This document shows positions 6,684 through 40,205 of a stretch of DNA of 64,000 nt, piece by piece. Made by a program: the position numbers and the translations under genes. Position 1 is the stretch's first letter; each line of letters starts with the position of its first letter. The DNA lies in the sequence record CP080654.1; one strand, 5' to 3'. This DNA is from a plasmid. A model generated the notes under the pieces. That model had not been told where the DNA came from. It did no database searches and was given only the letters and a program-made list of their open reading frames with translations.

Positions 6684-7996
6684 GTCAGTACAAAGCGTAT
6701 ACCTCATACAAAGATTCAGGCGTTGAGTGGATTGGGCAGGTGCCGGAGCATTGGGAGGTGAAAAGGTTACGTCATGTCGGGCGTTACTCTAATAGTGGCG
6801 TTGACAAGAAGAGCTACGAAGACCAGCAGACGGTTGAGCTTTGTAACTACACGGATGTCTATTACAACGAGTTCATCAGTGATGATATGCCTTTCATGCA
6901 GGCTACTGCCAGCGCCCACGAGATTGAGCAGTTCACTCTGAAAAAAGGCGATGTCATTATCACGAAGGATTCAGAAGACCCATCCGACATAGGGATTCCT
7001 GCCTTTGTTCCACATGATATGCCCGGAGTGGTTTGTGGCTATCATCTCACTATGATTCGTGCCTTAAATGATAACTATGGAAGCTATATCCATCGCTCGA
7101 TCCAGTCGGATCATACAAGAGCTCACTTCTTTGTTGAGTCGCCAGGAATAACCCGATATGGCCTGAATCAAAATACTATTGGTAATGCCCCAGTAGCGCT
7201 CCCTCCACCAGAAGAACAAGCCACCATCGCGGCCACCCTCGACCGCGAAACCGCCCGTATTGATGCGCTTGTCGAGAAGAAAATCCGCTTTATCGAGCTA
7301 CTGAAGGAAAAGCGCCAGGCGCTGATTACCCATGCGGTCACCAAGGGCCTAGACCCCAACGTGAAGATGAAGGATTCCGGCGTTGAGTGGATTGGGCAGG
7401 TGCCGGAGCACTGGGAGGTTAAACCCTTCTTCGCGTTGGTGTCAGAACTGAACCGAAAGAATGTGGGCCTAGCTGAAACCAATATACTGTCCCTCAGCTA
7501 CGGAAACATCATCCAGAAGCCTGAAACCAGAAATATGGGATTAACACCAGAGTCTTATGAAACCTATCAAATTGTAGAGTCTGGCGAAGTTGTATTTAGG
7601 TTCACCGATCTGCAAAACGACAAACGTAGCTTGCGTTCAGCCCAGGTTACGCAAAGAGGAATCATTACCTCTGCGTATATGGCCGTGAAACCGCACAGTA
7701 TTGGTTCTACATATTTTGCATGGTTGATGCGTTCATATGACCTTTGTAAAGTCTTTTATGCAATGGGTGGAGGATTGAGGCAGTCATTGAAGTTTGAAGA
7801 CGTCAGAAGGCTTCCTGTACTTATCCCTCCAGTCGGTGAACAGAGTGAAATTACCAATACAATTAATGCAGGAACTGCTCGCATTGATGCTCTAGTCGAG
7901 AAAACAGAACAAAGTATCACCCTGCTCAAAGAACGTCGCGCTGCCTTTATCACCGCCGCTGTCACCGGCCAGATTGATTTGCGAGGAAAACAATAA
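6680..7996 (+). CDS. hsdS: Type I RM specificity subunit HsdS (two target-recognition domains)
   Basis: Duplicated conserved segments (KDSGVEWIGQVPEHWEVK x2; TARIDALVEK x2) flanking two divergent TRDs. Confidence 0.85.
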   Translation: MSQYKAYTSYKDSGVEWIGQVPEHWEVKRLRHVGRYSNSGVDKKSYEDQQTVELCNYTDVYYNEFISDDMPFMQATASAHEIEQFTLKKGDVIITKDSEDPSDIGIPAFVPHDMPGVVCGYHLTMIRALNDNYGSYIHRSIQSDHTRAHFFVESPGITRYGLNQNTIGNAPVALPPPEEQATIAATLDRETARIDALVEKKIRFIELLKEKRQALITHAVTKGLDPNVKMKDSGVEWIGQVPEHWEVKPFFALVSELNRKNVGLAETNILSLSYGNIIQKPETRNMGLTPESYETYQIVESGEVVFRFTDLQNDKRSLRSAQVTQRGIITSAYMAVKPHSIGSTYFAWLMRSYDLCKVFYAMGGGLRQSLKFEDVRRLPVLIPPVGEQSEITNTINAGTARIDALVEKTEQSITLLKERRAAFITAAVTGQIDLRGKQ

Positions 7997-10900
7997 ATGC
8001 AATCAGCAGCACATCAGGAAAAACACTTCCAGCAATACATCATCGACCGGTTGGTAGAGCAGGGCTGGAAGCTGGGTGATTCCAAGTTCTACGACACCGA
8101 GCGGGCGGTGTACCCCGAAGACCTGGAAAGCTGGATCAAAACCAGCGGCCAGCAGGAAAAATGGGACAAGCTGGAACGGCTCAACGGGGCCAAAACCCTT
8201 GAAGTGCTGATGGATCGCTTGGATAAAGCACTGGAGAAACAAGGCACCATGCAGGTGTTGCGCCAGGGTTTTTCCATTGCCGGTTGCGGCCTGATCGAGA
8301 TGACCGAGGCTGCACCGGAAGACAAGCGCAATGCAGCAGTCATTGAGCGCTACCAGGCCAATATCCTGCGCGTGGTGCCGGAGCTGAAGTATCACCCGGC
8401 CCGTGAATTTGCCATTGATCTGGTGCTGTTTATCAACGGTCTGCCGGTGGCAACCGTCGAACTGAAGACCGACTTCACCCAGTCCTGCGAAGCGGCCATG
8501 GATCAGTACCGCAATGATCGCCTGCCGTATGACGCCAAGACCAAACGCCGGGAGCCATTGCTGACCTTCAAGCGTGGGGCGGTGGTGCATTTCGCCATGT
8601 CCGACTCTGAAATCATGATGGCGACCAAGCTGGATGGAGAAAACACCTTTTTCCTGCCGTTCAATAAGGGGCGCAAGGACGAAAGTGGCACGGTACATGC
8701 GGGTAACCCGCCAGGTGAGATTAAGGCCGATGGTACCCAGGAATACCCGGTAGCCTACTTCTGGGAGGCGGTCTGCCAGCCGGATGCCTGGCTGCGGATT
8801 TTCCATAGCTTTGTCTACGTCGAGAAAAAGGACGTTGTGGATATTCAGGGCAACTGGTCGAAGAAAGAAACCCTGATTTTCCCGCGCTTCCACCAATGGA
8901 CGGCAGTGAACCAGATGCTGACCGATGCCCGCGAAAACGGCGCAGGCATGACCTACCTGTGTGACCACAGCGCCGGTTCCGGCAAGACCAGCACCATTTC
9001 CTGGACGGCCCATGACTTGGTGAAACTGCGCGAAGATAACGGCGATTCGGTATTTAACAGCGTGATCATTGTCACCGACCGCAATGTGCTGGACGGCCAG
9101 CTTCAGGACGCGGTGAAGCAGATTGACCATCAGTTTGGGGTGATCGCCGCCATTGACCGGCAGAAGTCATCCAAGTCCAAGAGCAAGCAACTCTCGGAGG
9201 CCTTGTTGTCTGGCACGCCGATTGTGGTGGTCACGATCCAGACCTTCCCCTACGCGATGGAAGCCATCATCACTGACAAGGCCCTGAAAGGGAAAAACTT
9301 TGCTGTGATCATTGATGAGGCGCATAACTCGCAGACAGGCTCTACCGCCGCTAAGCTGCAAGCCGCGCTGGGGATGAGTGGGCAAGGCAAGATGTCCACC
9401 ATGACGGTGGATGAATTGCTGGAACAACTGCAAAAATCTCGGGCTCGCCCGGACAATATCAGCTATTTCGCCTTTACCGGTACGCCGAAGCACTCCACTT
9501 TGATGCTGTTCGGTCGCCCAACAGACCCGAGCCAGCCAGCCTCTAACGATAACCCTCCACAAGCCTTCCACCTGTACACCATGCGCCAGGCCATTGAGGA
9601 GAAATTCATTCTCGATGTGCTGAAAGGCTATGTGCCCTACAAAACGGCCTTCAACCTTTCCAAGCAGCTTGAAGACAGCAAGCGGGTAAGCGGCAAGGCC
9701 GCCAAACGCGCCCTGGCACAGTGGATGTCATTGCATCCCACCAATGTGACCCAGAAGGTACAGTTTATCGTTGAGCACTTCACCAAAAACGTCGCCCACC
9801 GGCTGGATGGCAAGGCCAAGGCGATGGTCGTGACCAGCTCCCGCGCCGCTGCCATTCGCTACAAGAAGGCGTTTGACCGCTATATCGAGCAGCACAGCGA
9901 GTACGGCTTTATTCATTCACTGGTGGCCTTCTCCGGCAAGATGACCGGTAAGCAGGTGATGCACCAGGATGACAGCGAGTTCAAGGATGATGTGTTTATC
10001 GTCGATGAGAACGAAGAGTTCACCGAGCAGAGCATGAACCCGGATGTCCAAGGGCAGGATTTGCGCTTTGCCTTTGACCGACCTGAATACCGGGTGATGT
10101 TGGTGGCTGACAAGTTCCAGACTGGCTTTGATCAACCCAAACTGGTCGCCATGTATGTAGACAAGAAAATCGCTAACCATGTGGAGATTGTGCAGACCTT
10201 CTCCCGTCTCAACCGGACGGCGCCCGGTAAGGATGAGGTCTTTATCATCGACTTTGTGAACGACCCGGAGAACGTGCGTCAGGCCTTTACCACCTATGAC
10301 AAGGGTGCTCACATCGACGAAGTGCAAGACCTCAATGTGGTCTACGAGATCAAGGAGCGCTTGGACGAGCACGGCCTGTACGACGAGAAGGACTTGGCTG
10401 CGTTCAAGGAAGCACGCTTCAAGACCATCCGCGACATCACCCATACCAAATCGCCACAGCACAAGGCGCTGTATGCCGCCACTGCTGGAGCGACGGCCTT
10501 GTATAACGACAAGATGAAGATGCTGCGCGATGGCATGGCGACCTGGGAGGCGGCTTTTGAGAAGGCCCGCGCCAAGGGTGATGAGGCGGGCATGAAGTCT
10601 GCTGACCACCATCAGGATGAGTACGCCGAGCAAATCAAGGCACTGATTGGCTTCAAGTCGGATTTGGGGCGTTTTTGTCGTACCTACTCCTATATCGCCC
10701 AACTGATTGATTTTGGCGACCCGGAGCTGGAGAACTTCGCCGCCTTCGCCAAGCTATTGCAAAAGCGCCTTCAGCACGAAGCACCTGAAACCGTGGACTT
10801 GACCGGCCTGGTGCTCACCGGTTTTGACATCAATGCTCGTTCAGATAACGCGGAGGACGAAGGCGAAACCCCGGTACTGCAACCGGTAGGTGCAGGCGGT

Positions 10901-11254
10901 GGTGGTGTGGCGGGCGACAAGCCGAAATTCGTCAAAGAGATTATTGAGCGACTCAACAGCCTGTTTGGTGAGGCAACGCCGATCCAGGATCAGGTGGCCT
11001 TCGTGAATCAGATCTTTTCAATCGCCGGCGAAAGCGATGTGGTGATGGCTCAGGTGGAAAGTAACACCCGCGAACAGGCCATGAAAGGCAATTTGCCCGG
11101 CGCTGTTCAGCAAGCGGTGGTTCGTGCTTTGTCCAGTCATCAGAAGCTGGCAACCCAAGTGCTCAAGTCTGACCGTCAGGGCATGACCGCATTGGTTGAT
11201 ATGGTGTATGACCTGCTGCGCGAAGGCAAAGACATCGATCTGGGTATGGATTAA
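7997..11254 (+). CDS. hsdR: Type I restriction enzyme R subunit HsdR; 3' end abuts/overlaps an ISL3-family IS
   Basis: 1085 aa; DEAH helicase motif VIIDEAHNSQTG; Walker A GSGKTST; follows hsdS by 1 nt. Confidence 0.85.
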   Translation: MQSAAHQEKHFQQYIIDRLVEQGWKLGDSKFYDTERAVYPEDLESWIKTSGQQEKWDKLERLNGAKTLEVLMDRLDKALEKQGTMQVLRQGFSIAGCGLIEMTEAAPEDKRNAAVIERYQANILRVVPELKYHPAREFAIDLVLFINGLPVATVELKTDFTQSCEAAMDQYRNDRLPYDAKTKRREPLLTFKRGAVVHFAMSDSEIMMATKLDGENTFFLPFNKGRKDESGTVHAGNPPGEIKADGTQEYPVAYFWEAVCQPDAWLRIFHSFVYVEKKDVVDIQGNWSKKETLIFPRFHQWTAVNQMLTDARENGAGMTYLCDHSAGSGKTSTISWTAHDLVKLREDNGDSVFNSVIIVTDRNVLDGQLQDAVKQIDHQFGVIAAIDRQKSSKSKSKQLSEALLSGTPIVVVTIQTFPYAMEAIITDKALKGKNFAVIIDEAHNSQTGSTAAKLQAALGMSGQGKMSTMTVDELLEQLQKSRARPDNISYFAFTGTPKHSTLMLFGRPTDPSQPASNDNPPQAFHLYTMRQAIEEKFILDVLKGYVPYKTAFNLSKQLEDSKRVSGKAAKRALAQWMSLHPTNVTQKVQFIVEHFTKNVAHRLDGKAKAMVVTSSRAAAIRYKKAFDRYIEQHSEYGFIHSLVAFSGKMTGKQVMHQDDSEFKDDVFIVDENEEFTEQSMNPDVQGQDLRFAFDRPEYRVMLVADKFQTGFDQPKLVAMYVDKKIANHVEIVQTFSRLNRTAPGKDEVFIIDFVNDPENVRQAFTTYDKGAHIDEVQDLNVVYEIKERLDEHGLYDEKDLAAFKEARFKTIRDITHTKSPQHKALYAATAGATALYNDKMKMLRDGMATWEAAFEKARAKGDEAGMKSADHHQDEYAEQIKALIGFKSDLGRFCRTYSYIAQLIDFGDPELENFAAFAKLLQKRLQHEAPETVDLTGLVLTGFDINARSDNAEDEGETPVLQPVGAGGGGVAGDKPKFVKEIIERLNSLFGEATPIQDQVAFVNQIFSIAGESDVVMAQVESNTREQAMKGNLPGAVQQAVVRALSSHQKLATQVLKSDRQGMTALVDMVYDLLREGKDIDLGMD

Positions 11255-12560
11255 GCCGATGCTTGACCTGCTGAATCTGCCAGGCATCAAGCCGGTCGAT
11301 ATGCGCCACGAAGGCAAGTGCCTTGTGATAGTTGCTGAGCCGGTAACGGTCGAGGTGCCGTTATGTGGGGAGTGCAACATCCCTATGCACAGACACGGTA
11401 CGCGCAAAAACAAGTTCATGGACACGCCGTTGTACATGGAGCCCGTCCGCCTTGAAGTTCAGCGCCCGCGCTTTCGCTGTGAGTCGTGCGGAAAAATGTC
11501 CATGCCGGAGTTGAGTTTTCTGGATGACAAACGCCGAGCCACCAAACGGCTGGTCGATGTTATTCGGCAACAGTGCCTGGGAACCACCTTCCATGCTTTA
11601 GCCGAGCAAACCGGTGTGGCGGTGAACACCGTCAAGAACATCGCTCGCGATCTCATTGAGGAACTCTCCCAAACCGTTCGTTACGAAACCCCGGTCATCA
11701 TGGGTATTGACGAAGTGAACCTAGCCGGAGGGTATCGCTGTGTAATCACCAATCTGGCAACCAACAACGTCTTTGATATGTTGGAGCATCGTACTCAAGA
11801 GCATTTGAAGCCCTTCTTCAAGGATTTGCCGGATGCTGACAAGGTGGAATGGGTCTGTACGGATATGTGGCGACCCTTCAAACGTTCCTTTGCTCAGTAT
11901 CTGCCCAACGCCAAACTGGTGATCGACAAGTTCCATGTCGTCAAGATGGCCTCTGAAGCCTTGGAAGCGGAGCGCAAGAACTATCAGGCACAGTTAAGCA
12001 AAGAAGATCGCATTTACGTCAAAAAGTCCATTCGCTGGCTCACCCTGAAGCGACCCGGCAACCTAACGCCCGCAGAGCAAAAGGCGCTGGAGGTTGTAAA
12101 GCAGGCAATCCCAGCACTTGCCATGGCCTATGACTTCAAGGAAGCCTTCTTCTGCATCTACGACGAACCCGACAAGCAGAGCGCTCAGAACGCCTTTGAG
12201 GCTTGGGAGAACAGCCTGCCGCCTTATGGCATGGAGCCTTTCAAAAAACTGGTAAAAACGGTACACAACCATTACGACGACATCTTTGCCTACTGGGATG
12301 CGCCGTTCTCAATCACCAATGGCTATACCGAAGGGCTCAACGGCTTGATCAAGATGTCCAACCGGTTAGGTCGGGGTTATAGCTATGAGATCATCCGTGC
12401 AAAGACGTTGTACTCCAAAGAAGCCCGCAAGGTTGGCAGTGGTATTCGAGCAGGACGAGGCAAGGTCGAGTATGGACCGCACATTCCGACATTGTTGAAG
12501 CAGGCAGAAGGTGGAGAGTTGGATTAACGCGAGAGAGGGCGCGTCTGAGAATCCAACCAA
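11185..12560 (+). mobile_element. ISL3-family insertion sequence (boundaries approximate)
   Basis: Single transposase ORF; imperfect terminal inverted repeat candidates CATTGGTTGATA (11190) / TATCCAACCAATG (rc, ~12553); left end inside the hsdR 3' end. Confidence 0.5.
11259..12527 (+). CDS. tnp: ISL3-family transposase (N-terminal zinc-finger CxxC...CxxC)
   Basis: 422 aa; CGECNIPMHRHG...CESCGK zinc ribbon typical of ISL3 transposases; start MLDLLNLPG. Confidence 0.8.
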   Translation: MLDLLNLPGIKPVDMRHEGKCLVIVAEPVTVEVPLCGECNIPMHRHGTRKNKFMDTPLYMEPVRLEVQRPRFRCESCGKMSMPELSFLDDKRRATKRLVDVIRQQCLGTTFHALAEQTGVAVNTVKNIARDLIEELSQTVRYETPVIMGIDEVNLAGGYRCVITNLATNNVFDMLEHRTQEHLKPFFKDLPDADKVEWVCTDMWRPFKRSFAQYLPNAKLVIDKFHVVKMASEALEAERKNYQAQLSKEDRIYVKKSIRWLTLKRPGNLTPAEQKALEVVKQAIPALAMAYDFKEAFFCIYDEPDKQSAQNAFEAWENSLPPYGMEPFKKLVKTVHNHYDDIFAYWDAPFSITNGYTEGLNGLIKMSNRLGRGYSYEIIRAKTLYSKEARKVGSGIRAGRGKVEYGPHIPTLLKQAEGGELD

Positions 12561-12646
12561 TGTTAGATTTTCGCAGGGTGGTGAAAAGCAGAAAAATCCA
12601 ACCAGAAGCAGCTTTTTGTCCGACTAAGAATTAAGGGTTAGAATGG

Positions 12647-13120
12647 ATGAATTCCAACCCTAGAATGCAAATAGCCGAAATTAGTTTGATTTATGGATTT
12701 CTTGATACTTTTGGCGAGTTTGCATCAACCTTTACAGTATGTCAGAAAGGTTGCAGCGCCTGTTGCAAAATAGGTGTCGAAATGACGGCATTAGAAGCAA
12801 GTTTTATAGAAAAAAACACATCCCACAGAATTGTATCTAACAAGCAAAGAAAATTAAAAACCAATACAGATTGCCCATTTTTAATTGATGGAATCTGCTC
12901 CATATATGAATATCGACCTTTCAATTGTAGAACCTTTTTCACAGTAGATAACCCTAAGTACTGCGAAACACCAAACGAACCTCATAGGACATATGGGAGT
13001 TTAGGTGGTCAAGACATAAATATAATTTATCAGTTTCGAAAATATATTGACCATCTAAATGGGAAGAGGAAGAAGAGTGATATCAGATTCTTCTTTGGGA
13101 ATCATAAAGGAATAAAATAG
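12647..13120 (+). CDS. YkgJ-family (UPF0153) cysteine-cluster protein, AT-rich gene
   Basis: CxxCxxCC motif CQKGCSACCK plus downstream CPF...C and CRTFF; ~35% GC unlike flanks. Confidence 0.5.
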   Translation: MNSNPRMQIAEISLIYGFLDTFGEFASTFTVCQKGCSACCKIGVEMTALEASFIEKNTSHRIVSNKQRKLKTNTDCPFLIDGICSIYEYRPFNCRTFFTVDNPKYCETPNEPHRTYGSLGGQDINIIYQFRKYIDHLNGKRKKSDIRFFFGNHKGIK

Positions 13121-13140
13121 CCAGGCATGGAAATATTTCA

Positions 13141-13180
13141 GTCCAGTTCTGCTGGCTGCGCGGGATCTGGCCTGGTAATA
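13141..13180 (+). repeat. Copy A (3' half only) of the ~85-bp direct repeat family
   Basis: gtccagttctgctggctgcgcgggatctggcctggta; follows ykgJ-like gene stop. Confidence 0.7.
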
Positions 13181-13211
13181 TGGACCTGATTTTTTAGAAG
13201 AGAGGTTGTTT

Positions 13212-13442
13212 ATGCCAGGGGAAATATATTCGTACCAGGTTATTACCGATACAACTGAACGCCTGCTCAATCAGTATGTAGCTGATGCACAAGCTAGCCC
13301 TGAGAGATCTGAAGCGTTGGTGGCAGCTTTTAATGGTGCATTTTGGTTGTGGTATCAACTCACCAGAGATTCAGATAATCCTGACAGAGATGCTGACGGA
13401 ACACGTTTCATGGATCTCATACCTGAATTTCCAGAGCAATAG
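13212..13442 (+). CDS. Hypothetical small protein (76 aa), cassette-like ORF 2
   Basis: GAGAGG SD; stop followed by hairpin aggccgggtctgcggcct + T5 and then repeat copy B. Confidence 0.4.
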   Translation: MPGEIYSYQVITDTTERLLNQYVADAQASPERSEALVAAFNGAFWLWYQLTRDSDNPDRDADGTRFMDLIPEFPEQ

Positions 13443-13461
13443 GCCGGGTCTGCGGCCTGTT

Positions 13462-13548
13462 TTTACGCCCCTCATTTAATTCCCCGCGCGGTTAGACATT
13501 CAGGTGATTGCGTCCAGTTCTGCTGGTAGCGCGGGATCTGGCTTGGTA
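13462..13548 (+). repeat. Copy B of the ~85-bp direct repeat (full length)
   Basis: cctcatttaattccccgcgcggttagacattcaggtgattgcgtccagttctgctggtagcgcgggatctggcttggta. Confidence 0.75.
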
Positions 13549-13595
13549 TACTAATCACACAATATCTATTCCCCATTCATAATCAGGTGAATCAT

Positions 13596-13682
13596 GTTCA
13601 ATAATGATTTTCTGTTTTATGCACCTATCTGTATAGGTGTAGGCATAGTTGCCTATTTTCTATTTATTAAAAAGAACTAATG
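13596..13682 (+). CDS. 28-aa hydrophobic peptide (MFNNDFLFYAPICIGVGIVAYFLFIKKN), cassette-like ORF 3
   Basis: Strong AGGTGA SD 5 nt upstream; single TM segment; followed by repeat copy C; below the 60-aa ORF-track cut-off. Confidence 0.35.
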
Positions 13683-13701
13683 TCGCGCCAGTGGCCTTTC
13701 T

Positions 13702-13790
13702 ACTACTCCTCATTTAATTCCCAGCGCAGTTAGACATTCAGGTCATTCCGTCCAGTTCTGCTGGCTGTGCGGGATCTGGCCTGGTAAAAT
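13702..13790 (+). repeat. Copy C of the ~85-bp direct repeat (full length)
   Basis: ~90% identical to copy B over 85 bp. Confidence 0.75.
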
Positions 13791-13819
13791 TAATGAATTG
13801 GTAGGAAAAGGAATATCCT

Positions 13820-14068
13820 ATGACGACAGTTTTCAGGTTGATGGTTGCTTATCAGAAAGAAGACTGTTCTCGGAAGGAGCGTTATCTTTCTGCTTCTTCT
13901 CTTCCGTGGCCGGAACGTTATCAACGAAAGCCATTAATGCGACGATCACCCCGTGACCGGACGTTATTCAAGATAGCTGACAGGGATCTCCGCTATAAAA
14001 AGCGTGGCAGATATGCAAGACCAGAAACGAGTATGGTCATGCCGTTCAGTCTTTGTAGCAAGGCATAA
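13820..14068 (+). CDS. Hypothetical basic protein (82 aa), cassette-like ORF 4
   Basis: AAGGAA SD; stop followed by hairpin tgccagcggca + T6 then repeat copy D. Confidence 0.4.
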   Translation: MTTVFRLMVAYQKEDCSRKERYLSASSLPWPERYQRKPLMRRSPRDRTLFKIADRDLRYKKRGRYARPETSMVMPFSLCSKA

Positions 14069-14096
14069 ACTCATCAGTCAGACCGTGCCAGCGGCA

Positions 14097-14150
14097 TTTT
14101 TTATGCCCCTCGTTTAATTCCCGCGCCCACCTGGACGATCAGGTGATTCT
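14097..14150 (+). repeat. Copy D (5' part) of the direct repeat; contains perfect CTGGAC-N14-GTCCAG
   Basis: cccctcgtttaattcccgcgcccacctggacgatcaggtgattctgtccagt. Confidence 0.65.
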
Positions 14151-14231
14151 GTCCAGTAAAAGAAGACATCATCGGGTTCATCTGCAATAAACAACAGATA
14201 CACAAAAAATGCTTTTCTCCCTGGACATTTC

Positions 14232-14266
14232 GGCACTATCGGAATAAATGTCCAGAAAATATTTTG
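14232..14266. other. Perfect 10-bp inverted repeat CTGGACATTT-N15-AAATGTCCAG, candidate recombinase binding site
   Basis: Shares the CTGGAC/GTCCAG arms found inside each ~85-bp repeat; lies 70 bp from the recombinase gene 3' end. Confidence 0.4.
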
Positions 14267-14333
14267 CTTGGTCGTATTTATTATTCTTGCACAAATACCC
14301 CAGCCTGTGCCGGGAGGTGAGCACTGACAGATG

Positions 14334-15116
14334 TTACCTGCCATTTCCCTTCAGCAGCGCCACCGCCTCATCGCCTGGCATCTGGAACTGCACCCGGTGC
14401 CGTGCCGCGACATCGAGCGCAAACACTTTCGTGTAGACCTCCGTCGAGCTGATCGACTTGTGTCCCATCAGGCTCTGCAGCACCTTCAGCGGGATGCCGG
14501 CATACAGCATGTGCATCCCGTAGCTGTGACGGAACGTGTGCGGGGTAACCGGTACCGAAAACGTCACCCCGTCGGCGGCAGCCGCATCAACGGCTTCACT
14601 TATCCAGGTCCGGACCGTTCTGTCGGTAATTTCCCAGATGCGTGCCTTCTCGGTTCTGCCTGTGCGTTTATTACGGCGCTCCAGCGGAATTTTAAGCGTG
14701 GCCACCATCATCTCCAGCTGGCTGACATAGTTCGCATCGGAAAGCGGAACGATACGATGAGGCTGGCTACCGGCCGGAGCTCGGCCGGCCGTTCTGGTGG
14801 CTTTTTCGGTCCGCTGCTTGAGCGTGGCCAGCTGCACGAACGGGTAGGGCGCCGTCAGCGAAAAATCACTCCGGGTCAGCGCCAGCGCTTCGTTAATTCG
14901 GGCGCCGGTGTTCCACAGGGTGGCCAGCAGCATCTTGCGGTGCAGATCGGGCACGTAGTGGAGCAGGGCGCTCACTTCCGGCGCCAGCAGGTATTTAGGC
15001 AGCTCGTCCTGAACGAGCGCCATCTGTCGCAGGGCCAGCGCGGCCGGGTAATCGATGGCCACCGGCAGCTGCGCGGCCGAAAATGAAACGCCCTGGCCTG
15101 GTATTGCCGGTATCAT
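14334..15116 (-). CDS. Tyrosine site-specific recombinase (phage-integrase/Xer/ResD-like, 260 aa)
   Basis: C-terminal catalytic region HTFRHSYGMHML...LMGHKSISSTEVY (R..HxxR..Y signature); ~60% GC next to an AT-rich island. Confidence 0.8.
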   Translation of the reverse strand: MIPAIPGQGVSFSAAQLPVAIDYPAALALRQMALVQDELPKYLLAPEVSALLHYVPDLHRKMLLATLWNTGARINEALALTRSDFSLTAPYPFVQLATLKQRTEKATRTAGRAPAGSQPHRIVPLSDANYVSQLEMMVATLKIPLERRNKRTGRTEKARIWEITDRTVRTWISEAVDAAAADGVTFSVPVTPHTFRHSYGMHMLYAGIPLKVLQSLMGHKSISSTEVYTKVFALDVAARHRVQFQMPGDEAVALLKGNGR

Positions 15117-15448
15117 TATTTATTGCCCCCGGTGGAGAGGTATTGCACTGTAAGTCGTGCCAGGGCCTTCTGCGCGTAATCCTCGCCCGGGAGCACACTG
15201 ATTTCTCCCCGGCGTTCCATCTCGGCGCCGATAGCGCTCAGGGTCGTAGTTACCGGCAGCAGGCGGCGCAACAACAGGGCGTGCCCGCATGCGGAACGGA
15301 TACGTTCGGCAAACGCATCCTCATCGCGGGAGTATGCGCCGGGCGCCGGTCGTTCCCGGCCGTCCTTTTCCGACTGCAGTTCCTGGCACAGCGTCAGCAG
15401 CTCAACGATCTCACTGGCTGCATAAACAGCCATCAGGTCATGGTTCAT
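15116..15448 (-). CDS. Hypothetical protein (110 aa), co-directional and overlapping the recombinase start
   Basis: ORF in the same transcriptional unit; no recognisable motif. Confidence 0.4.
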   Translation of the reverse strand: MNHDLMAVYAASEIVELLTLCQELQSEKDGRERPAPGAYSRDEDAFAERIRSACGHALLLRRLLPVTTTLSAIGAEMERRGEISVLPGEDYAQKALARLTVQYLSTGGNK

Positions 15449-15454
15449 TCCGGC

Positions 15455-15985
15455 TTATCCTGATTTGCCAAACAGCTGAGGCAGTTCATCAAACAACATC
15501 ACATGACGGGTGCGCTTGCCGCGAAAAATACGCCTCATCATCGGCGTGAAATCCGCAGGCTCCCAGCCATAGGGCCACGTATAGTAAATCCCTACCTGCA
15601 GCGTGCTGTCGCGTCGTTCTGGTCCGGCAACTATACGCCTGACCTCCCTGTTCAGCGCCTCACCGCGCAGACCGTACTGGCCCAGGTAGCGGCGCAGCCG
15701 CATTCTCGGCATCCGCGGATCGGATTTCACGTAAGCATTAATATCCATATGCTGGGTGGCGGTGAGGATATTCATGCCGTACTTGCGCATGGTGCTGAAA
15801 GCGGTGGCCATCACGTCCGCTTCTGTCCGTGGTTCATCATCGGTTCTGTTCATCTGGGTTGTTGCGTGGTCCGACCGTCTAAGCTGACGCGGTATCATCC
15901 TGCAGCGACCGGAAGACAAGCAGGGCGTCCGTCCTGGAGAGTAGCTCGGTACAGTCCCCGCGCTGCGGGTTAATCTCTTCATCAA
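15455..15985 (-). CDS. Hypothetical protein (possibly the C-terminal part of a frameshifted gene with 15879..16208)
   Basis: Two overlapping minus-strand ORFs in different frames. Confidence 0.3.
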   Translation of the reverse strand: MMKRLTRSAGTVPSYSPGRTPCLSSGRCRMIPRQLRRSDHATTQMNRTDDEPRTEADVMATAFSTMRKYGMNILTATQHMDINAYVKSDPRMPRMRLRRYLGQYGLRGEALNREVRRIVAGPERRDSTLQVGIYYTWPYGWEPADFTPMMRRIFRGKRTRHVMLFDELPQLFGKSG

Positions 15986-16208
15986 TGGCCTCGTTATACT
16001 GCATGCGCAGCCGCCATCCCGTCACGGGAGGCGCGTTCTGTATGGCCAGCACCATCCCTTCCGGCGACAGCAGTTCACGGAGGGTGTAGCAGGCGCCAAT
16101 CCGGGTCGAATCCCGCAGCCACATCACGGGGTACTCACTGACCAGCTGGTCATACACACATTCCGGCGTATGGAAATAATTCCCGTCCGCCCTGCATAAA
16201 TTACACAT
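15879..16208 (-). CDS. Hypothetical protein (109 aa; possible N-terminal part of a frameshifted gene)
   Basis: Overlaps 15455..15985 by 107 nt in another frame. Confidence 0.3.
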   Translation of the reverse strand: MCNLCRADGNYFHTPECVYDQLVSEYPVMWLRDSTRIGACYTLRELLSPEGMVLAIQNAPPVTGWRLRMQYNEAIDEEINPQRGDCTELLSRTDALLVFRSLQDDTASA

Positions 16209-16235
16209 TCGCGTTCCTTGTATTGAGAAACCCCG

Positions 16236-16544
16236 TCAGGCCAGGTCTGTCATAAAACGGCCAGGCTCAAAAGGCCAGCGCCTGTCGCCCTGCGAGTACA
16301 CCTCGATCCACGCCAGTGTCCCGTGCTCAAAATACAGGTGATAACCGTCATCGGCACTGAGGGTCAGCATCCCGTCAAAACAGGTATCGGTTCGCGTACC
16401 GTCACCCATCCAGCGAAGCAGGCGGCCTTCAGCGGAAATCTCGTAAAATTCACACTCGCAGTCCAGGTCGTCGGTCTGAAAGTCCGTCCCGGTGACTCCG
16501 TCAGGCATCCGGTACCGGAATCTGACCGTATCAAACATTCCCAT
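16236..16544 (-). CDS. Hypothetical protein (102 aa)
   Basis: Compact ORF in the same orientation as neighbours. Confidence 0.4.
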   Translation of the reverse strand: MGMFDTVRFRYRMPDGVTGTDFQTDDLDCECEFYEISAEGRLLRWMGDGTRTDTCFDGMLTLSADDGYHLYFEHGTLAWIEVYSQGDRRWPFEPGRFMTDLA

Positions 16545-16841: not shown

Positions 16842-17327
16842 CAGAACGGTGTACAGAACGAGCGCAATAGGTTCGGTTGCATATGCCTTCCCTTTAATTA
16901 ATGCCCCGCCCGATAATACCGACAGGGTAATGCTTTACGCGGCACTGTTTAGGGAGTAATTACCCCATCAGCAATCATCATGATGGCAATTATCACTGCA
17001 CTGATAATAACCATCCTTATAGCCACGCCGTTAAATTACAGGACGGCCGTTCCGTCCGGATCCGACTTTTCGCGCTTTACGAAGTTTCCGGAAGTGTACC
17101 ACGGTGAGAGAATAACCACAGCGCCCTTTTAGGGTGGTGAGCGGCCGGTCACGGGGCAGGGGAGGGACACAACATCTAGCGTCACTGTCAGCTGGTAACA
17201 CCGCTACATCTTGTGTTTTTGGGCCGCTGCGCGCCGGAGGGCGGAAAGCAGATCCGGAACTACCTTTTTTCGGATCTGACCGGGAAAAGAGAGAATACAA
17301 CATAGGTTCAACATATCCATATGCCGG

Positions 17328-17445: not shown

Positions 17446-17679
17446 ATGATGAGAACTGTATCCATTTTTAAAAACGGCAATAACCGCGCCATTCGTCTGC
17501 CCCGCGATCTGGATTTTGAGGGAGTGAGCGAGCTGGAGATCGTCCGGGAAGGGGACAGCATTATTTTGCGTCCCGTCCGGCCGACCTGGGGCTCGTTCGC
17601 GCAGTTCGAGAAGGCAGACCCGGACTTTATGGCGGAGCGCGAGGACGTTGTCAGCGACGAAGGACGATTTAACCTGTGA
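17446..17679 (+). CDS. vapB: VapB antitoxin (AbrB/MazE-type; VagC-like)
   Basis: 77 aa SpoVT/AbrB-like N-terminus; stop overlaps vapC start (ATGA). Confidence 0.85.
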   Translation: MMRTVSIFKNGNNRAIRLPRDLDFEGVSELEIVREGDSIILRPVRPTWGSFAQFEKADPDFMAEREDVVSDEGRFNL

Positions 17680-18092
17680 ACAAGACCTATATGCTCGACA
17701 CCTGTATCTGCTCGTTCATCATGCGCGAGCAGCCGGAAGCCGTCCTGAAGCGCCTGGAGCAGGCGGTGCTGCGCGGCCAGCGCATCGTTGTCTCGGCCAT
17801 CACTTATTCTGAAATGCGCTTCGGGGCCACCGGCCCGAAGGCCTCCCCGCGCCACGTCGAGCTGGTCGACGCGTTCTGCGCCCGCCTCGATGCCATCCTG
17901 CCCTGGGATCGCGCTGCGGTGGACGCCACCACGGAGATTAAGGTGGCGCTGCGAATGGCCGGGACGCCGATCGGCCCGAACGACACGGCCATTGCCGGGC
18001 ACGCCATCGCCGCCGGTGCCGTGCTGGTGACGAATAATACGCGGGAATTTGAGCGGGTACCGGGTCTTGTGCTGGAAGACTGGGTAAGATAA
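17676..18092 (+). CDS. vapC: VapC PIN-domain toxin (VagD-like)
   Basis: 138 aa; PIN acidic residues (MLDTCIC..., NNTREFERV). Confidence 0.85.
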   Translation: MNKTYMLDTCICSFIMREQPEAVLKRLEQAVLRGQRIVVSAITYSEMRFGATGPKASPRHVELVDAFCARLDAILPWDRAAVDATTEIKVALRMAGTPIGPNDTAIAGHAIAAGAVLVTNNTREFERVPGLVLEDWVR

Positions 18093-28545: not shown

Positions 28546-31443
28546 ATGTCACGACGCCATATTTTCACCGAACGGCAGCGAGCAGCGCTGTTCGATCTGC
28601 CCACGGACGAACTGTCGCTACTGAAGTTCTACACGCTGGGCGATGATGACCTGGAAAACATTAGGCAGCGCCGCAGACCGGAAAACAGGATTGGCTTTGC
28701 CCTGCAACTTTGTGCCTTACGATATCCGGGCCGTGCACTGGCTCCTGGTGAGATGATCCCGCGTGAAGTCCTTTCCTTCGTCGGTGCTCAGCTTGGAGTT
28801 CCGGCTGATGCGCTTCTCACTTATGCCACACGGCGCCAAACCCGTCAGCAGCACATGGACACGCTGCGCGAAATTTACGGCTACAAGACCTTCACGGGCC
28901 GTGGTGCCCGTGATCTGCGGGAGTGGACTTTCGGCCAGGCCGAAGATGCCAGATCAAACGAGGATCTTGCTCATCGTTTTATTGTGCGGTGTCGGGAAAC
29001 TTCCACCATTCTGCCCGCAGTATCGACAATCGAGCGCTTGTGCGCGGATGCTCTGGTCGCCGCTGAGTGGCGGATTGAAACGCGGATTGCGGAAAATTTA
29101 ACAGCGGATGTTCGCGATCACCTGGACAAACTTCTGAGTGAAATGCTCGCCGGCAATATCAGTCGTTTCATCTGGCTTCGCAACTTCGAGGTTGGTAACA
29201 ACTCGGCTGCTGCTAACCGTTTGCTCGACAGGCTCGAATTTCTGCGTACCCTGAATATCAATCATAGTGCTTTGGCCAGCATACCTGCCCATCGCATTGC
29301 CCGGCTGCGTCGGCAGGGTGAACGCTACTTCACCGACGGTTTGCGTGACATCACTTCGGACCGCCGCTGGGCGATCCTTGCCGTCTGTGTTGTGGAGTGG
29401 GAAGCGGCGATTGCTGATGCCATAGTCGAAACCCATGACAGGATCGTAGGAAAAACCTGGCGGGAAGCGAAGCGCCAGCATGACGAAACAATTTCCGGCT
29501 CTAAAGCCACACTCACGGATACGATCCGTACCTTCACCGCGCTGGGAGCTTCGTTGCTTGAGGCCCGCAGTGACGGAACCCCGCTGGAGATGGCTGTCGC
29601 CAGTTCGGTTGCATGGGACCGGCTCGCTCAACTGGTAGCGACAGGGACTCAACTCAGCAACACGCTAGCCGATGAGCCTCTTGCATATGTCGGGCAGGGA
29701 TACCATCGCTTTCGTCGTTATGCGCCCCGCATGTTGCGCTGTCTGAAGCTCGAAGCCGCGCCGGTCGCCGGACCATTGGTAGCAGCAGCTTTGTCGATCG
29801 GAGAGATGAAAGGTGTTGCATCGCCAGAAAGGCGTTTCCTGCGGCCCAGCTCCAAATGGAACCGTCATTTACGAGCTCAGGAAAAAGGAGATACCCGTCT
29901 TTGGGAAGTGGCGGTACTCTTTCACCTCCGGGATGCTTTTCGTTCCGGAGATGTCTGGCTCGCTCATTCGCGCCGCTATGGTGACCTCAAGCAGGTACTG
30001 GTGCCGATGATCGCGGCGCAGGAAAATGCAAAACTGGCCGTGCCTTCCAACCCACAGGATTGGCTGGCAGACAGAAAGGCGCGACTCACGATCGCTCTTA
30101 AGCGGCTGGCCCGGGCTGCCCGTAACGGCACTATTCCGCACGGTAGCATAGAAGATGGAACGTTGCGGATCGACAGGTTGACAGCAGACGTGCCGGATGG
30201 TGCCGAGGCACTCATACTGGATCTGTATCGCCGAATGCCGTCCGTTCGGATTACCGACATGCTGCTTGAAGTTGATGCAGCCCTTGGTTTCACAGATGCG
30301 TTTACCCATCTGAGAACCGGGGCTCCATGTCGCGACCGGATCGGTCTGCTCAACGTCCTGCTCGCTGAAGGGCTCAATCTGGGCCTGCGTAAGATGGCGG
30401 AAGCTACAAACACGCATGATTACTGGCAGCTCTCACGCCTTGCCCGCTGGCATGTTGAAAGCGAAGCCATGAACCAGGCATTGGCAATTGTGGTGGCCGC
30501 GCAGGGTAAACTGCCGATGTCACGCGTCTGGGGGATGGGCACGTCAGCATCGAGCGATGGTCAGTTTTTCCCGACAGCGCGGCATGGCGAAGTCATGAAC
30601 ATGGTCAATGCCAAATATGGTTCTGTTCCCGGCCTCAAAGCGTATACTCACGTAAGCGACCAGTTCGCGCCATTCGCTTGTCAGTCGATCCCGGCGACCG
30701 TGAGCGAGGCACCGTATATTCTCGATGGACTACTGATGAACGAGGTCGGTCGCCATGTTCGCGAACAGTATGCCGATACAGCAGGATTCACCGACCATTT
30801 GTTCGGAGCCAGTAGCCTGCTCGGCTACAATCTCGTTCTGCGAATCAGGGATCTGCCATCGAAGCGGTTGTACGTATTTAATCCCGATACGACCCCCAGG
30901 GAGTTACGCAAGTTGGTAGGTGGAAAAGCCCGGGAGGATCTTATCGTTGCGAACTGGCCTGATATTTTCCGTTGTGCCGCGACGATGACCGCTGGCAAAA
31001 TCAGGCCCAGCCAACTCCTGCGCAAGCTCGCTTCTTACCCACGACAAAACAACCTTGCAGTTGCGCTTCGTGAAGTTGGTCGTATTGAACGGACCCTTTT
31101 CATTATTGAGTGGATCCTGGATACGGACATGCAGCGGCGTGCTCAGATCGGTCTTAACAAGGGAGAGGCCCACCATGCGCTCAAAAATGCGCTCCGTATC
31201 GGGAGGCAGGGGGAAATTCGCGATCGCACGACAGAGGGGCAGCACTACCGAATCGCTGGGCTCAATTTATTGACTGCGGTGATCATTTACTGGAATACCG
31301 TCCATCTTGGTCATGCCGTCACGGAGCGGCGGAACGAAGGGTTGGATGTTCCCCCTGAATTTCTTCCCCACATATCCCCATTGGGCTGGGCGCACATTCT
31401 ACTGACTGGCGAATATCTTTGGCCCAAGGAACCGAAAGCTTAG
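28546..31443 (+). CDS. tnpA: Tn3-family transposase TnpA (Tn5403-like); its IR removed by IS26 9 bp upstream
   Basis: 965 aa; MSRRHIFTERQRAALFDLPTDE... aligns to the Tn3 TnpA N-terminus; C-terminal ...SPLGWAHILLTGEYLW. Confidence 0.85.
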   Translation: MSRRHIFTERQRAALFDLPTDELSLLKFYTLGDDDLENIRQRRRPENRIGFALQLCALRYPGRALAPGEMIPREVLSFVGAQLGVPADALLTYATRRQTRQQHMDTLREIYGYKTFTGRGARDLREWTFGQAEDARSNEDLAHRFIVRCRETSTILPAVSTIERLCADALVAAEWRIETRIAENLTADVRDHLDKLLSEMLAGNISRFIWLRNFEVGNNSAAANRLLDRLEFLRTLNINHSALASIPAHRIARLRRQGERYFTDGLRDITSDRRWAILAVCVVEWEAAIADAIVETHDRIVGKTWREAKRQHDETISGSKATLTDTIRTFTALGASLLEARSDGTPLEMAVASSVAWDRLAQLVATGTQLSNTLADEPLAYVGQGYHRFRRYAPRMLRCLKLEAAPVAGPLVAAALSIGEMKGVASPERRFLRPSSKWNRHLRAQEKGDTRLWEVAVLFHLRDAFRSGDVWLAHSRRYGDLKQVLVPMIAAQENAKLAVPSNPQDWLADRKARLTIALKRLARAARNGTIPHGSIEDGTLRIDRLTADVPDGAEALILDLYRRMPSVRITDMLLEVDAALGFTDAFTHLRTGAPCRDRIGLLNVLLAEGLNLGLRKMAEATNTHDYWQLSRLARWHVESEAMNQALAIVVAAQGKLPMSRVWGMGTSASSDGQFFPTARHGEVMNMVNAKYGSVPGLKAYTHVSDQFAPFACQSIPATVSEAPYILDGLLMNEVGRHVREQYADTAGFTDHLFGASSLLGYNLVLRIRDLPSKRLYVFNPDTTPRELRKLVGGKAREDLIVANWPDIFRCAATMTAGKIRPSQLLRKLASYPRQNNLAVALREVGRIERTLFIIEWILDTDMQRRAQIGLNKGEAHHALKNALRIGRQGEIRDRTTEGQHYRIAGLNLLTAVIIYWNTVHLGHAVTERRNEGLDVPPEFLPHISPLGWAHILLTGEYLWPKEPKA

Positions 31444-31531
31444 GGTGTCATTTCGCCCTCAGCCGGAACCGACCCCTTTAAGTGATACCATTTTAAGCAG
31501 TACCACTTAAATGTTACCATCAGGACAAAAA
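31444..31531 (+). promoter_or_regulatory. Probable res site between tnpA and tnpR
   Basis: Position only; short AT-rich intergenic region. Confidence 0.3.
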
Positions 31532-32152
31532 ATGTTCGTTTTTGGTTACCTCCGGGCATCAACATCAGAGCAGGATGCCAGCCGGGCAAAAAATGCACTG
31601 AAGGCATTTGCAAACCAACATGGCCACCGTATTGCTGGCTGGTATATCGATAATGTCTCCGGTACGACAATGAACCGCCCTGAACTGATCAGGCTTCTTG
31701 GTGATGCGGAACCTGGTGATGTGATCCTCATTGAACAGGTCGACAGGCTTACTCGCCTCGATGATGCTGGCTGGGAGACACTAAGAAAGCAAATTACCGA
31801 CAAGCAGCTGGCCATCGTCAGTCTTGATCTACCGACCAGCCATCTGGCGCTATCCAGCACAGTAAGTGATGACTTTACCCGAAGCATGCTGAAGGCCGTA
31901 AATGGAATGCTGCTGGATATGCTGGCCGCTATTGCCCGAAAAGATTACGAAGATCGTCGACGTCGTCAGTCAGAGGGAATCAGTAAGGCGAAAGCTGAAG
32001 GGAAATACCGGGGCCGGGTGGCTGATGCGCAGAAACATGAACTGATACGTACCCTGCGCCTGGTCAACGGAAAATCGCTGCGCGAAACAGCTCGCCTGGC
32101 TGGCGTTTCTAAAATGACAGTGATTCGGGTCTGCTCCAGCGCTGATAAATAA
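31532..32152 (+). CDS. tnpR: Serine resolvase TnpR (Tn5403-like)
   Basis: 206 aa; N-terminal catalytic YLRASTSEQD, C-terminal HTH. Confidence 0.85.
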   Translation: MFVFGYLRASTSEQDASRAKNALKAFANQHGHRIAGWYIDNVSGTTMNRPELIRLLGDAEPGDVILIEQVDRLTRLDDAGWETLRKQITDKQLAIVSLDLPTSHLALSSTVSDDFTRSMLKAVNGMLLDMLAAIARKDYEDRRRRQSEGISKAKAEGKYRGRVADAQKHELIRTLRLVNGKSLRETARLAGVSKMTVIRVCSSADK

Positions 32153-32250
32153 CACTTACATCGGGTAGAATTCGTTTGTCCGGTATCAGTATCAGTGATT
32201 ATCTGAGACAGAGCGGGACTGGCCGAACGACTGAAAGGCATTTGTGATCT

Positions 32251-32661
32251 ATGAAAATTAATTTATACGGGGAAGGTATGAAAACAGTGTCAGGAGTGTT
32301 GGTGTATCTCGCGGTATGTTTTCTGGTATTTACAGCATGGCTGATCTGCTTTGCGCAGCACGCTCCGTTTCCGGGAGGCGAACAAGCTTTGACTTTAACT
32401 TATCTACTTAATGTATTCTTCGTATATTTTTTGATGGTACCCTTTATCCACTTCTTTCAGGTAGAGACATATTACAAAGCTTTGATGGGCCTAGCTGATG
32501 GTACTGAACATATAATACAGTTCTATGAGGAAGTGCCTGTCATGTTGATATACCTTTTATCCGCAGGTTTAACTTTGTTCTTTTATTTCATACCCTTAAA
32601 ACTTTTCTTTAATAAAAAATTAAAATTACAATTACAGCAAAAACAAAGGAAAGATATTTAG
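32251..32661 (+). CDS. Hypothetical multi-pass membrane protein, AT-rich
   Basis: 136 aa with 4 hydrophobic segments; low GC. Confidence 0.4.
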   Translation: MKINLYGEGMKTVSGVLVYLAVCFLVFTAWLICFAQHAPFPGGEQALTLTYLLNVFFVYFLMVPFIHFFQVETYYKALMGLADGTEHIIQFYEEVPVMLIYLLSAGLTLFFYFIPLKLFFNKKLKLQLQQKQRKDI

Positions 32662-33013
32662 ACGGCTAATACCTGAGATGAATAAGTCAACAACCAACGG
32701 ATATCCGTCAACGAGATCAGTTTAACCAATTTATTGAACACTCATAACCCAAATAATCATGCGACTGCGCGCTGCCACGGAAACGCGTAAAAATCAGAAC
32801 TGAAAGAGGGAAGACGGATGACGGACCAGAAACACAATGATGCCTATTCGCGCTGGTTAATTGAATAGGCAGACAGAGAAGAAAAGGAAGAATTCTCGCG
32901 TTCGTTCAGCAGACTGAAATGCATCCTGTTAAATATCGTGGTGTTCGGTATCATTTCACTGGGCGTTTGCCTGGCTGTTCAGCAGGTGACGCATTGACAT
33001 CCACCCCGGCACA

Positions 33014-33212: not shown

Positions 33213-33317
33213 CGCACCTTCCGCTACTTCGACAGTTGTGTAAAAAACCGTGCTCGTTGATAACCAGAAGGTGCGGTACTGAAAAACTATTGCTTGCAAC
33301 AATTTGCTCAAACGTCA

Positions 33318-38379: not shown

Positions 38380-40205
<1,826 letters not shown>

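Follow-up and report, generated by a model that had tools for sequence, protein, structure and literature searches.

Introduction

The systems that most resemble the one described here are integrons, the pdif modules of Acinetobacter plasmids, which carry resistance, toxin-antitoxin or other accessory genes, and the ResD-rfsF system of F, IncR and IncI1 plasmids. The published recombination site of ResD, rfsF, is 28 bp long (AGATCCGNAA-N8-TTNCGGATCT, with 10-bp arms and an 8-bp spacer) and has been shown by experiment to fuse F-type and Klebsiella virulence plasmids (PMC8299605). It has also been credited with swapping gene sets between plasmids (PMC8004404, PMC9412624, PMC8299605). Here, we analyse a stretch of 64,000 nucleotides from a plasmid (sequence record CP080654.1; the whole stretch is called the window below), in which repeats and small genes alternate next to a resD gene. 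On balance, positions 13147–14156 of the window are probably a tandem array of three mobile gene cassettes, members of a plasmid-restricted family built by site-specific exchange at a core of about 45 bp, beside ResD-family genes.

The window is a base-for-base match to pKpQIL-type Klebsiella pneumoniae plasmids, several records of which have the same coordinates (BLAST). The units are modular and variable in content, their joint is sharp and lies between the A and the final G of GTCCAG (GTCCA/G), they turn over in near-identical backbones, and they are restricted to plasmids and linked to ResD-family genes. No prior description of this cassette system was found in the open-access literature. 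Surveyed loci are denoted by L numbers and clusters of open reading frames (ORFs) by c numbers.

The repeat unit and its modules

A profile was seeded with the two full copies of the repeat in the window and then iterated over related DNA. This DNA consisted of plasmid records from BLAST searches, together with three species-representative genomes and a set of 36 metagenome contigs retrieved by a pattern of the core only. Loci were chosen by core sequence alone, and the metagenome sample is biased to well-conserved cores; core ends were placed by a pattern near the profile match. The survey comprises 113 core copies in 45 sequences. The cores of any locus share one strand, in agreement with the initial annotation of this DNA, which had all repeats of the window in a single orientation.

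The full unit consists of three separable modules. Module T is an intrinsic terminator, a GC-rich hairpin with a T-run (GGCCGC-nnnn-GCGGCC-TTTTT), some stems of which vary between aligned copies with pairing kept (e.g., GGCCAC...GTGGCC and GGTCGC...GCGACC). It is followed by the core, TTTAATTCCC-N7-T[TG][AG]GACA-N12-TGTCCAG, in which the arms are 12 bp apart in 59 of the 60 scored copies and the 'spacer' between them is conserved as well (ATWCAGGTnATTC). Module P, TTCTGCTGGCWGCGCGRGATCTGGCCTGnTAnnnT, contains an extended −10 promoter (TGnTAnnnT). Among 20 distinct P variants, the T, T, A and T of this element are invariant and the G is present in 19 (one has an A), so that the conserved positions are exactly those which define an extended −10. 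A Shine–Dalgarno sequence and a start codon follow about 25–45 nt after the module. Copies are found as T+core, core alone, core+P and T+core+P; most are without P and many also without T.

A simple sigma-70 scan of the window missed the repeat promoters because their −35 element is weak; the extended −10 came from the alignment. Relative to the transcription start predicted from the −10 positions, the core lies at about −43 to −68, and since it sits between a terminator and a promoter in full units, it is probably untranscribed there. The region contains eight terminator-like sites against 1.9 expected. One small gene is thus enclosed by its own predicted promoter and terminator, the arrangement of an autonomous expression unit.

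In the window, a 31-nt pattern of the repeat matches three times, against 0.00 expected by chance. Copies B (13441–13552) and C (13681–13790) are full, copy A (13137–13181) is a 3′ half only and copy D (14080–14157) a 5′ half only; a profile search found no fifth copy anywhere in the 64 kb. The initial annotation had described four repeats of about 85 bp, one after each of four ORFs and each preceded by a hairpin and T-run, with CTGGAC/GTCCAG arms throughout. The repeat is real, but just two of its copies are full. The hairpins are present before copies B, C and D (13445–13459, 13682–13695 and 14085–14097), and there is none after ykgJ, the first of the four ORFs. The arms occur as described in copy D (TGGAC-N14-GTCCA, 14132–14155) and in a separate site at 14221–14255, but the left arm of copies B and C is TTAGAC and copy A retains GTCCAG only.

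All three window cassettes lie on the plus strand and read promoter-ORF-terminator-core. They are preceded by a first junction at 13123–13146 (+), a partial core (nhmmer model positions 53–76) of which only the right arm GTCCAG remains (13141–13146). Cassette 1 (371 bp, 13147–13517) starts with a promoter module at 13147–13181, with TGGTAATAT at 13173–13181, followed by an ORF of 76 amino acids (13212–13442), a terminator at 13445–13459 plus T-run, and a core at 13470–13517, with its box at 13476–13485 and the arms TTAGACA at 13492–13498 and CGTCCAG at 13511–13517. Cassette 2 (238 bp, 13518–13755) has its promoter module at 13518–13552 (TGGTATACT at 13544–13552), an ORF for a hydrophobic peptide of 28 amino acids (13594–13680), a hairpin at 13682–13695 and a core at 13708–13755. 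Cassette 3 (401 bp, 13756–14156) is composed of a promoter module at 13756–13790 (TGGTAAAAT), an ORF of 82 amino acids with a match to DUF7301 (13820–14068, E 1.4e-8), a terminator at 14085–14097 plus T-run and a core at 14108–14156 with the perfect arms CTGGACA-N12-TGTCCAG at 14131–14156. The first junction is without T and the left part of the core, and the last junction is without P. This is the pattern expected for tandem stacking of units with a complete site.

Cassette content, joints and turnover

Across the surveyed loci, 62 core-to-core intervals of 106–2698 bp hold 57 ORF clusters (BLASTP, at least 30% identity). The intervening ORFs, which the initial annotation had proposed to compare between plasmids, do vary, and homologous plasmids do not share the identical, invariant content that it had named as an observation against cassettes. 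The same gene is found flanked by cores in different neighbourhoods and orders: c3 in nine loci, and also c8, c42 and c89-c35, while the c89-c35-c8 group and c97-c3 stand in opposite order in L024 and L029. Every gene has a fixed orientation relative to its own 3′ core, genes being on either strand and cores pointing one way. On its downstream side, the c3 cassette invariably has a core variant of its own (AGTATAAATCCCC ... CAGCnCTTTCTGTCCA), and five unrelated variants are found before it; because c3 keeps its downstream core while the preceding cores differ, the core is to be counted as the 3′ end of a cassette.

At the core, homology between different plasmids ends. When all loci were compared with one another by BLAST, 134 of the 256 left ends of homology blocks were located within a core, yet cores account for only about 1.5% of the sequence. 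Among 247 right ends, 28 lie within −5 to +4 of GTCCAG and 47 within 60 nt of the core end. To the right of GTCCAG, 72 different sequences are found, with no conservation beyond a weak preference for T. Loci L014, L023 and L038 are 98.7–99.0% identical over 1100 bp starting 1–6 nt past their last core, and have no detectable similarity in the 1000 bp before it. The core marks the joints of many unrelated genes in many plasmids, in line with the initial proposal of a cassette array.

Turnover is seen in several backbones. The empty site L012 reads backbone-core-anchor, and the occupied L023 reads backbone-core-[promoter, ORF, core]-anchor. The K. pneumoniae plasmid pINF019_1 encodes the same ParA protein as the window plasmid, and its ykgJ is 97.9% identical. 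It shares the first junction of the window, which is there continued by different DNA: after the identical ...ATATTTCAGTCCAGTTC, an Abi-family gene on the other strand replaces the three small cassettes, joined at the same GTCCAG. The Abi unit terminates in a degenerate core (GTTCTGTCTAG) that abuts the stop codon of resD. A single promoter-type cassette lies between resD and repE in pKPN49_2, and five cores precede the recombinase in the E. coli O157 plasmid pMB9_3.

The position of the exchange can be narrowed down. Spacer variants move with the upstream cassette up to ...TTTC, whereas for c89 the last base of GTCCAG moves with the downstream cassette, GTCCAC being found in two different contexts. 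In 16 aligned anchors (the conserved segment that follows the last core), the five positions after GTCCAG have a mean entropy of 0.84 bits, versus 0.26 for the next 133. From these three observations, the exchange point is probably within a few bases at or just right of GTCCA/G, a position that would be compatible with a short overlap region. By our own reading of the alignment, joints that have only the core in common share about 45 bp at roughly 75–85% identity, which we judge too little for efficient RecA recombination.

Distribution of the core

The unit has matches in about 900 PLSDB plasmids, their hosts including E. coli, Klebsiella, Enterobacter, Salmonella, Citrobacter and Serratia. 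A scan of 5,426 complete E. coli genomes gave 532 matches, of which 523 are plasmid-borne and nine chromosomal, with a median of one place per genome, and the exact promoter-type pattern has three matches in 185,579 species-representative genomes. The element is plasmid-restricted. It is not the ubiquitous chromosomal REP/ERIC-type repeat that had been raised as one of two observations that would speak against a cassette system; the scans of E. coli and of the species-representative genomes rule this out, Klebsiella chromosomes not having been scanned separately.

No Rfam family was found in 12400–15300 at E of at most 1. This result, the lack of pairing covariation and the location of the core between terminator and promoter make a structured RNA very improbable. 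By-eye comparison of the core with ArcA, ArgR, IHF, CRP, LexA and MetJ boxes, sigma-54 and sigma-E promoters and MOBF and MOBP nick regions gave no convincing match.

The recombinase, its known site and the anchor

The gene next to the array (14334–15116, minus strand) encodes a tyrosine recombinase of 260 amino acids (PF00589) and points towards the array with its 3′ end. Over 256 amino acids, the protein shares 86% identity with ResD of the F plasmid, making it a ResD orthologue. Its scores do not come near the NCBIfam cut-offs for XerC, XerD and integron integrases (for the latter, 58.7 bits versus 265 for TIGR02249 and 45.6 versus 435 for NF011946), so the initial view that it is no IntI stands, and so does the contrast in GC content noted at the same time (0.60–0.64 over the recombinase versus 0.36–0.47 over the array).

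The site on which ResD is known to act lies elsewhere. A perfect rfsF (AGATCCGGAACTACCTTTTTTCGGATCT, zero mismatches to the published pattern) is located at 17250–17277, 2.1 kb from resD, upstream of the resD operon and between it and vapBC (17446–18092). It is the only match in the window; 12560–15116 contains no rfsF-like sequence at up to three mismatches, and no core-like motif is found around rfsF. The F plasmid has its own rfsF upstream of ccdA, and Serratia and Enterobacter relatives also have one. As a perfect rfsF is present outside the array, the ResD-rfsF resolution and fusion module is complete and separate from it, and dimer resolution and replicon fusion are a separate, already known function of the neighbouring gene. 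The initial annotation had offered a ResD-like dimer-resolution module with an unusual repeat family as one possibility. The ResD orthologue is real, but the repeats are not rfsF, and the suggestion is not supported.

Of 34 evaluable loci, 19 have an intact ResD-family gene past the last core, in 18 of these 19 within 700 bp and at fixed distances. Five further loci retain the anchor and about the first 14 codons of the recombinase gene, and the E. coli IncFIB-type loci L002, L006 and L010 have a cassette with no recombinase nearby. The co-occurrence of repeat and recombinase, which it had been suggested to check, is frequent but not general. In the ResD-proper group (82–100% identity), the gene is convergent and its 3′ end is 181–320 bp from the last core. 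A second group is 44–48% identical to ResD and, in metagenome contigs, co-directional with the cores, the gene starting 264–265 bp after the last of them. In these contigs, topB-hha-hns-like genes come before it and a ParA-like gene after it, a content that we call IncX-like for its resemblance to IncX backbones. Among the typed plasmids with the second-group anchor, only L051 is assigned to IncX1, and there the tyrosine recombinase gene has been lost.

Between the core and the second-group gene lies a perfect palindrome, TATCCTG-N7-CAGGATA, which we call IR3 (L023, 2190–2215; L052, 27442–27462; L051, 6669–6689). It is conserved about 95 bp past the last core, with about 170 bp between it and the recombinase gene, and is probably this enzyme's own resolution site, the counterpart of rfsF. 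In the alignment, cores are alike across recombinase contexts and resemble neither rfsF nor IR3. Two weak resemblances were not used: that of the core centre TTCAGGTnA to the IR3 arm TTCAGGATA (7 of 9) and that of GATCGGAA in the anchor to the rfsF arm GATCCGGAA.

The last core is followed by an anchor, present in the window as a remnant at 14157–14333 (+) with the inverted repeat IR2, CTGGACATTT-N15-AAATGTCCAG, at 14221–14255 and TATCGGAA inside it. A segment with IR2 (TGGACA-N21-23-TGTCCA, again with TATCGGAA inside) follows the last core in all types. It has one orientation with respect to the cores in both arrangements, the recombinase gene itself being inverted from one to the other. Homologues in the same orientation occur in Serratia and Enterobacter plasmids, in metagenome contigs with IncX-like content and in a contig from a viral collection. 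The IR2 hairpin has a z-score of −3.3.

Some further features of these loci deserve mention. The IMG/VR contig L053 (9027–10250) has three cores, then an IR2-like anchor. In the Enterobacter plasmid L050 (NZ_CP126764.1), an insert of about 8.6 kb (30236–38691) parts the array and anchor from resD-ccdAB-rfsF; a serine recombinase gene stands at the start of the insert, and genes for sugar-acid catabolism are also present in it. In the F plasmid (L003), a degenerate core-like stretch (...TTAGGTTGTTCTGTCCAT) was recognised by eye, unscored by the profile, at about 7970–8015 on the strand opposite resD, about 300 bp downstream of that gene, and it adjoins a GC-rich hairpin upstream of repE. A further conserved block, with the palindrome CTGTTCAGA-N7-TCTGAACAG and with GGGTTGGACAAGCCCG-N-CGGGCGCGTCAGC, lies past the anchor, about 100–170 bp after IR2, in L035, L045 and L008; in E. 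coli IncFIB plasmids (L002, 5860–5930), the block is before the array, beside the parA promoter.

Cassette products and neighbouring genes

Most cassette products have no family; of ten larger ones tested, three had one. These are AbiD/Abi_2, a CAP12/Pycsar-type TIR protein (PADLOC PDC-S35) and a protein like DpnII/MboI-type restriction endonucleases. Annotated arrays also hold dinQ or dqlB type I toxins (L051 and L052) and SprT-like genes. The transcriptome of pBIC1a has no data on these small genes (PMC6286996). The 28-amino-acid product in the window (MFNNDFLFYAPICIGVGIVAYFLFIKKN) resembles a small hydrophobic toxin of the type I kind. In L011, L024 and L025, the recombinase gene past the last core is cut after about 14 codons, and genes for 211, 513 and 580 amino acids follow. 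These resemble a maturation and export set of the microcin-J25 type (mcjBCD).

The left boundary of the array is ykgJ (12647–13120, +; 157 amino acids; PF03692, E 1.8e-7), a CxxCxxCC protein gene truncated at its 5′ end. It is not a cassette itself, and no core lies upstream of it. The intact gene in NZ_CP085731.1 (L001) encodes 209 amino acids and homology in the window starts at 12677 only, from which we conclude that the ISL3-family element at 11196–12677 (transposase at 11196–12527) was inserted inside ykgJ; the 157-amino-acid ORF starts at an internal ATG. All four ORFs placed between the ISL3 element and the recombinase in the initial annotation are present, each with a readable Shine–Dalgarno sequence, and the assignment of the first to the YkgJ family is correct, but this gene is not complete. 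Upstream of resD, four small co-oriented, tightly packed genes (15116–16544, −; 110, 135, 109 and 102 amino acids) have no Pfam family. Just upstream of the ISL3 element, a helicase-like ORF of 1085 amino acids (7997–11254) is, by its motifs, presumably the R subunit of a type I restriction system.

Discussion

In the mechanism that we propose for this cassette family, a cassette would have the conserved core of about 45 bp at its 3′ end; optional parts would be an intrinsic terminator just ahead of the core and, at the 5′ end, an extended −10 promoter of the cassette's own. Cassettes would stack head to tail, with one core orientation, at a fixed hot spot, located downstream of the resD 3′ end in F-like plasmids and 264–265 bp upstream of the ResD-like gene in IncX-like contigs, with the conserved IR2-bearing anchor following the last core. 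Insertion and excision would proceed by conservative site-specific recombination at the core, the crossover presumably falling within a few bases at GTCCAG and immediately to its right. As catalyst, a ResD-family recombinase acting in cis or in trans would be the most likely.

Several observations weigh against this reading. The case for cassette exchange is comparative throughout, and the ORFs of the metagenome loci were called by a simple longest-ORF rule. In the pKpQIL lineage the array is apparently invariant: about 280 records cover at least 80% of the query, and seven of seven sampled are 100% identical. The known ResD site is intact elsewhere, and the core arms, TRGACA and TGTCCAG, are unlike it. 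The same cores are found beside recombinases 44–48% identical to ResD that have a different palindrome, whereas the sites of a neighbour-specific enzyme should have diverged along with it. Conservation is also one-sided, extending about 45 bp to the left of the joint and not to the right, which is unusual for a two-arm tyrosine-recombinase site, and the three IncFIB-type loci do without a nearby recombinase. As identical cores adjoin recombinases of 44–48% identity with a palindrome of their own, it is linkage that ties the recombinase to the cassettes. Of the recombinase-driven capture and excision first proposed, the cassette system is thus supported by comparison, and the drive by this particular recombinase is not. 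Since the cores are unvarying and unlike both rfsF and IR3, candidates for the catalyst are a second ResD-family specificity, a host factor and an unrecognised protein.

The same cassette system might instead be cut by something other than its ResD-family neighbour, which we consider unlikely. Possible cutters are a host factor that Enterobacterales have in common, a plasmid protein not yet recognised, and an enzyme of single-stranded DNA (ssDNA) that requires sequence on one side of the cut only; resD and the ResD-like gene would then be landmarks of a permissive region. Cores are indistinguishable beside three recombinase types that are 44–48% identical, neither rfsF nor IR3 is like them, and their conservation on one side suits such an enzyme. 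Besides the arrays without a recombinase nearby (L002, L006 and L010), others have a gene stump only, and the orientation of the IR2 anchor is tied to the cores, the recombinase gene occurring in both orientations. A permissive region alone, however, explains poorly the tight, fixed-distance linkage to ResD-family genes (19 of 34 loci with an intact gene, plus remnants). Nor do the particular candidates fare well: the core does not match XerC/XerD arms by eye, its arms show no compensatory change and it folds as ssDNA no better than shuffled sequence, and there is no shared relaxase, as the plasmids use different families (MOBF and MOBP).

Rather less credible is that the repeats are regulatory intergenic units, made up of a terminator, a protein-binding site and a promoter, that spread by duplication while genes are shuffled by homologous or illegitimate recombination, with no dedicated site. 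Regulatory repeats have precedents in the CUP repeats of pKM101/R46 and in PeSL of T4-type phages. The promoter and terminator modules are convincing, a regulator could bind the core at about −43 to −68 of the predicted start, and IR2, whose arms are the same, is found about 100 bp ahead of the second-group (IncX-like) recombinase gene. Core orientation, however, is independent of gene orientation, and most copies have no promoter module and many no terminator module either. Many cores directly adjoin a convergent gene at its 3′ end, far from any promoter: only about 5 nt separate the c3 stop codon from the joint, and the degenerate core of pINF019_1 touches that of resD. Joints are confined to a few bases at GTCCAG in at least 72 contexts, the shared sequence is too short and too diverged for RecA, and the model of the unit has no match in R46.

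It is very improbable that the repeats belong to the ResD dimer-resolution site, as accessory or duplicated parts, and serve plasmid monomerisation instead of gene exchange. They adjoin the gene of an F ResD orthologue, and resolution sites of related systems are repeat-rich, e.g., crs of pSDL2. The site rfsF, however, is on the other side of the operon, is complete alone and has no core-like motif around it; active resolution sites in direct repeat would delete the genes between cores; and cores are found between unrelated genes and beside neighbours other than ResD. A generic dispersed element (REP/ERIC/MITE-type) or structured RNA, suggested by a repeat that is short, partly palindromic and intergenic, is very improbable, too, given the plasmid location of the E. 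coli matches (523 of 532), the three matches in 185,579 species-representative genomes and the lack of an Rfam match.

Returning to cassette exchange at the core, a wider reading is possible but tentative: F-like plasmids and plasmids of IncX-like content may share a new integron-like gene-capture system, with often self-expressing cassettes, a double-strand-type core, exchange at GTCCA/G beside a ResD-family recombinase, and an exchangeable store of small accessory genes, among them single-gene systems of phage defence (AbiD, a TIR effector and REase-like proteins) and toxin-like peptides. If the cores are true recombination sites, they would constitute, next to integrons, a second platform for the exchange of cassettes on plasmids by which carbapenemase and other resistance genes are disseminated. 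The hosts concerned would be Klebsiella, E. coli, Enterobacter, Salmonella and Serratia, and the plasmids those of the pKpQIL type, other F-like ones and those of IncX-like content. Such a platform would account for the movement of small genes, of Abi and TIR defence genes and of toxin-like peptides from one unrelated backbone to another, and would provide a short searchable signature for locating such genes. It also raises the question of what cuts a one-sided site that is identical beside recombinases less than 50% identical, a second activity of ResD being one possibility. The promoter and terminator modules together make a compact, naturally insulated expression unit.

Comparison with known systems

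Like integrons, the arrays consist of variable cassettes in tandem and in one orientation, each ending in its own recombination signature, the edge of which is the fixed point of joining, with little conserved to the right. The genes are tightly packed, diverse and mostly small, phage-defence genes among them; a tyrosine recombinase lies beside them, and both empty and occupied sites exist. The recombinase is of the ResD family and not IntI, and its gene is at the far end of the array, convergent or co-directional, instead of divergent from attI. Many cassettes bring their own promoter and terminator, where integrons have a platform promoter. The core is no folded attC. RYYYAAC/GTTRRRY is absent, as the initial annotation had noted, and the folding check that it proposed gave no attC-like hairpin: both strands of copies B, C and D fold as ssDNA no better than shuffled sequence (z from +0.9 to −1.9). 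Position 3 of the arms is an A.C mismatch in 23 of 60 cores, without compensation, and the lack of compensatory change leaves a folded single-strand site unsupported.

The pdif modules are also plasmid-borne, bounded by short sites and shuffled between plasmids, and they carry accessory genes. Their sites are 28 bp long (XerC-6-XerD) and alternate in orientation, in contrast to the cores of about 45 bp, all direct, in Enterobacterales hosts. Xer modules of this kind were rejected on the direct orientation of all cores within a locus and on the absence of a match to the arms of dif, cer and psi, judged by eye only. With the ResD-rfsF system of F, IncR and IncI1 plasmids, the window has a true ResD orthologue and a perfect rfsF in common, but the core has different arms and a spacer of 12 bp versus 8 bp, and the array is located 3′ of resD while rfsF is upstream of the operon.

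Two systems resemble the units in their expression signals. Phage morons and the PeSL of T4 are self-contained promoter-gene-terminator units between backbone genes, with repeats flanking small novel ORFs; the units described here add a core that is independent of gene orientation, are often without promoter or terminator, and are joined at a fixed base. The IncN CUP repeats of pKM101/R46 are promoter-bearing sequences repeated upstream of small plasmid genes, but they are 240–650 bp long, confined to leading-region genes and in one orientation. Homology to them was rejected, the T-core-P model having a best E of 2.8 against R46 (nhmmer; CUP repeats located by R46 self-BLAST). The array works like an integron or a pdif module, but departs from both in the features by which they are defined.

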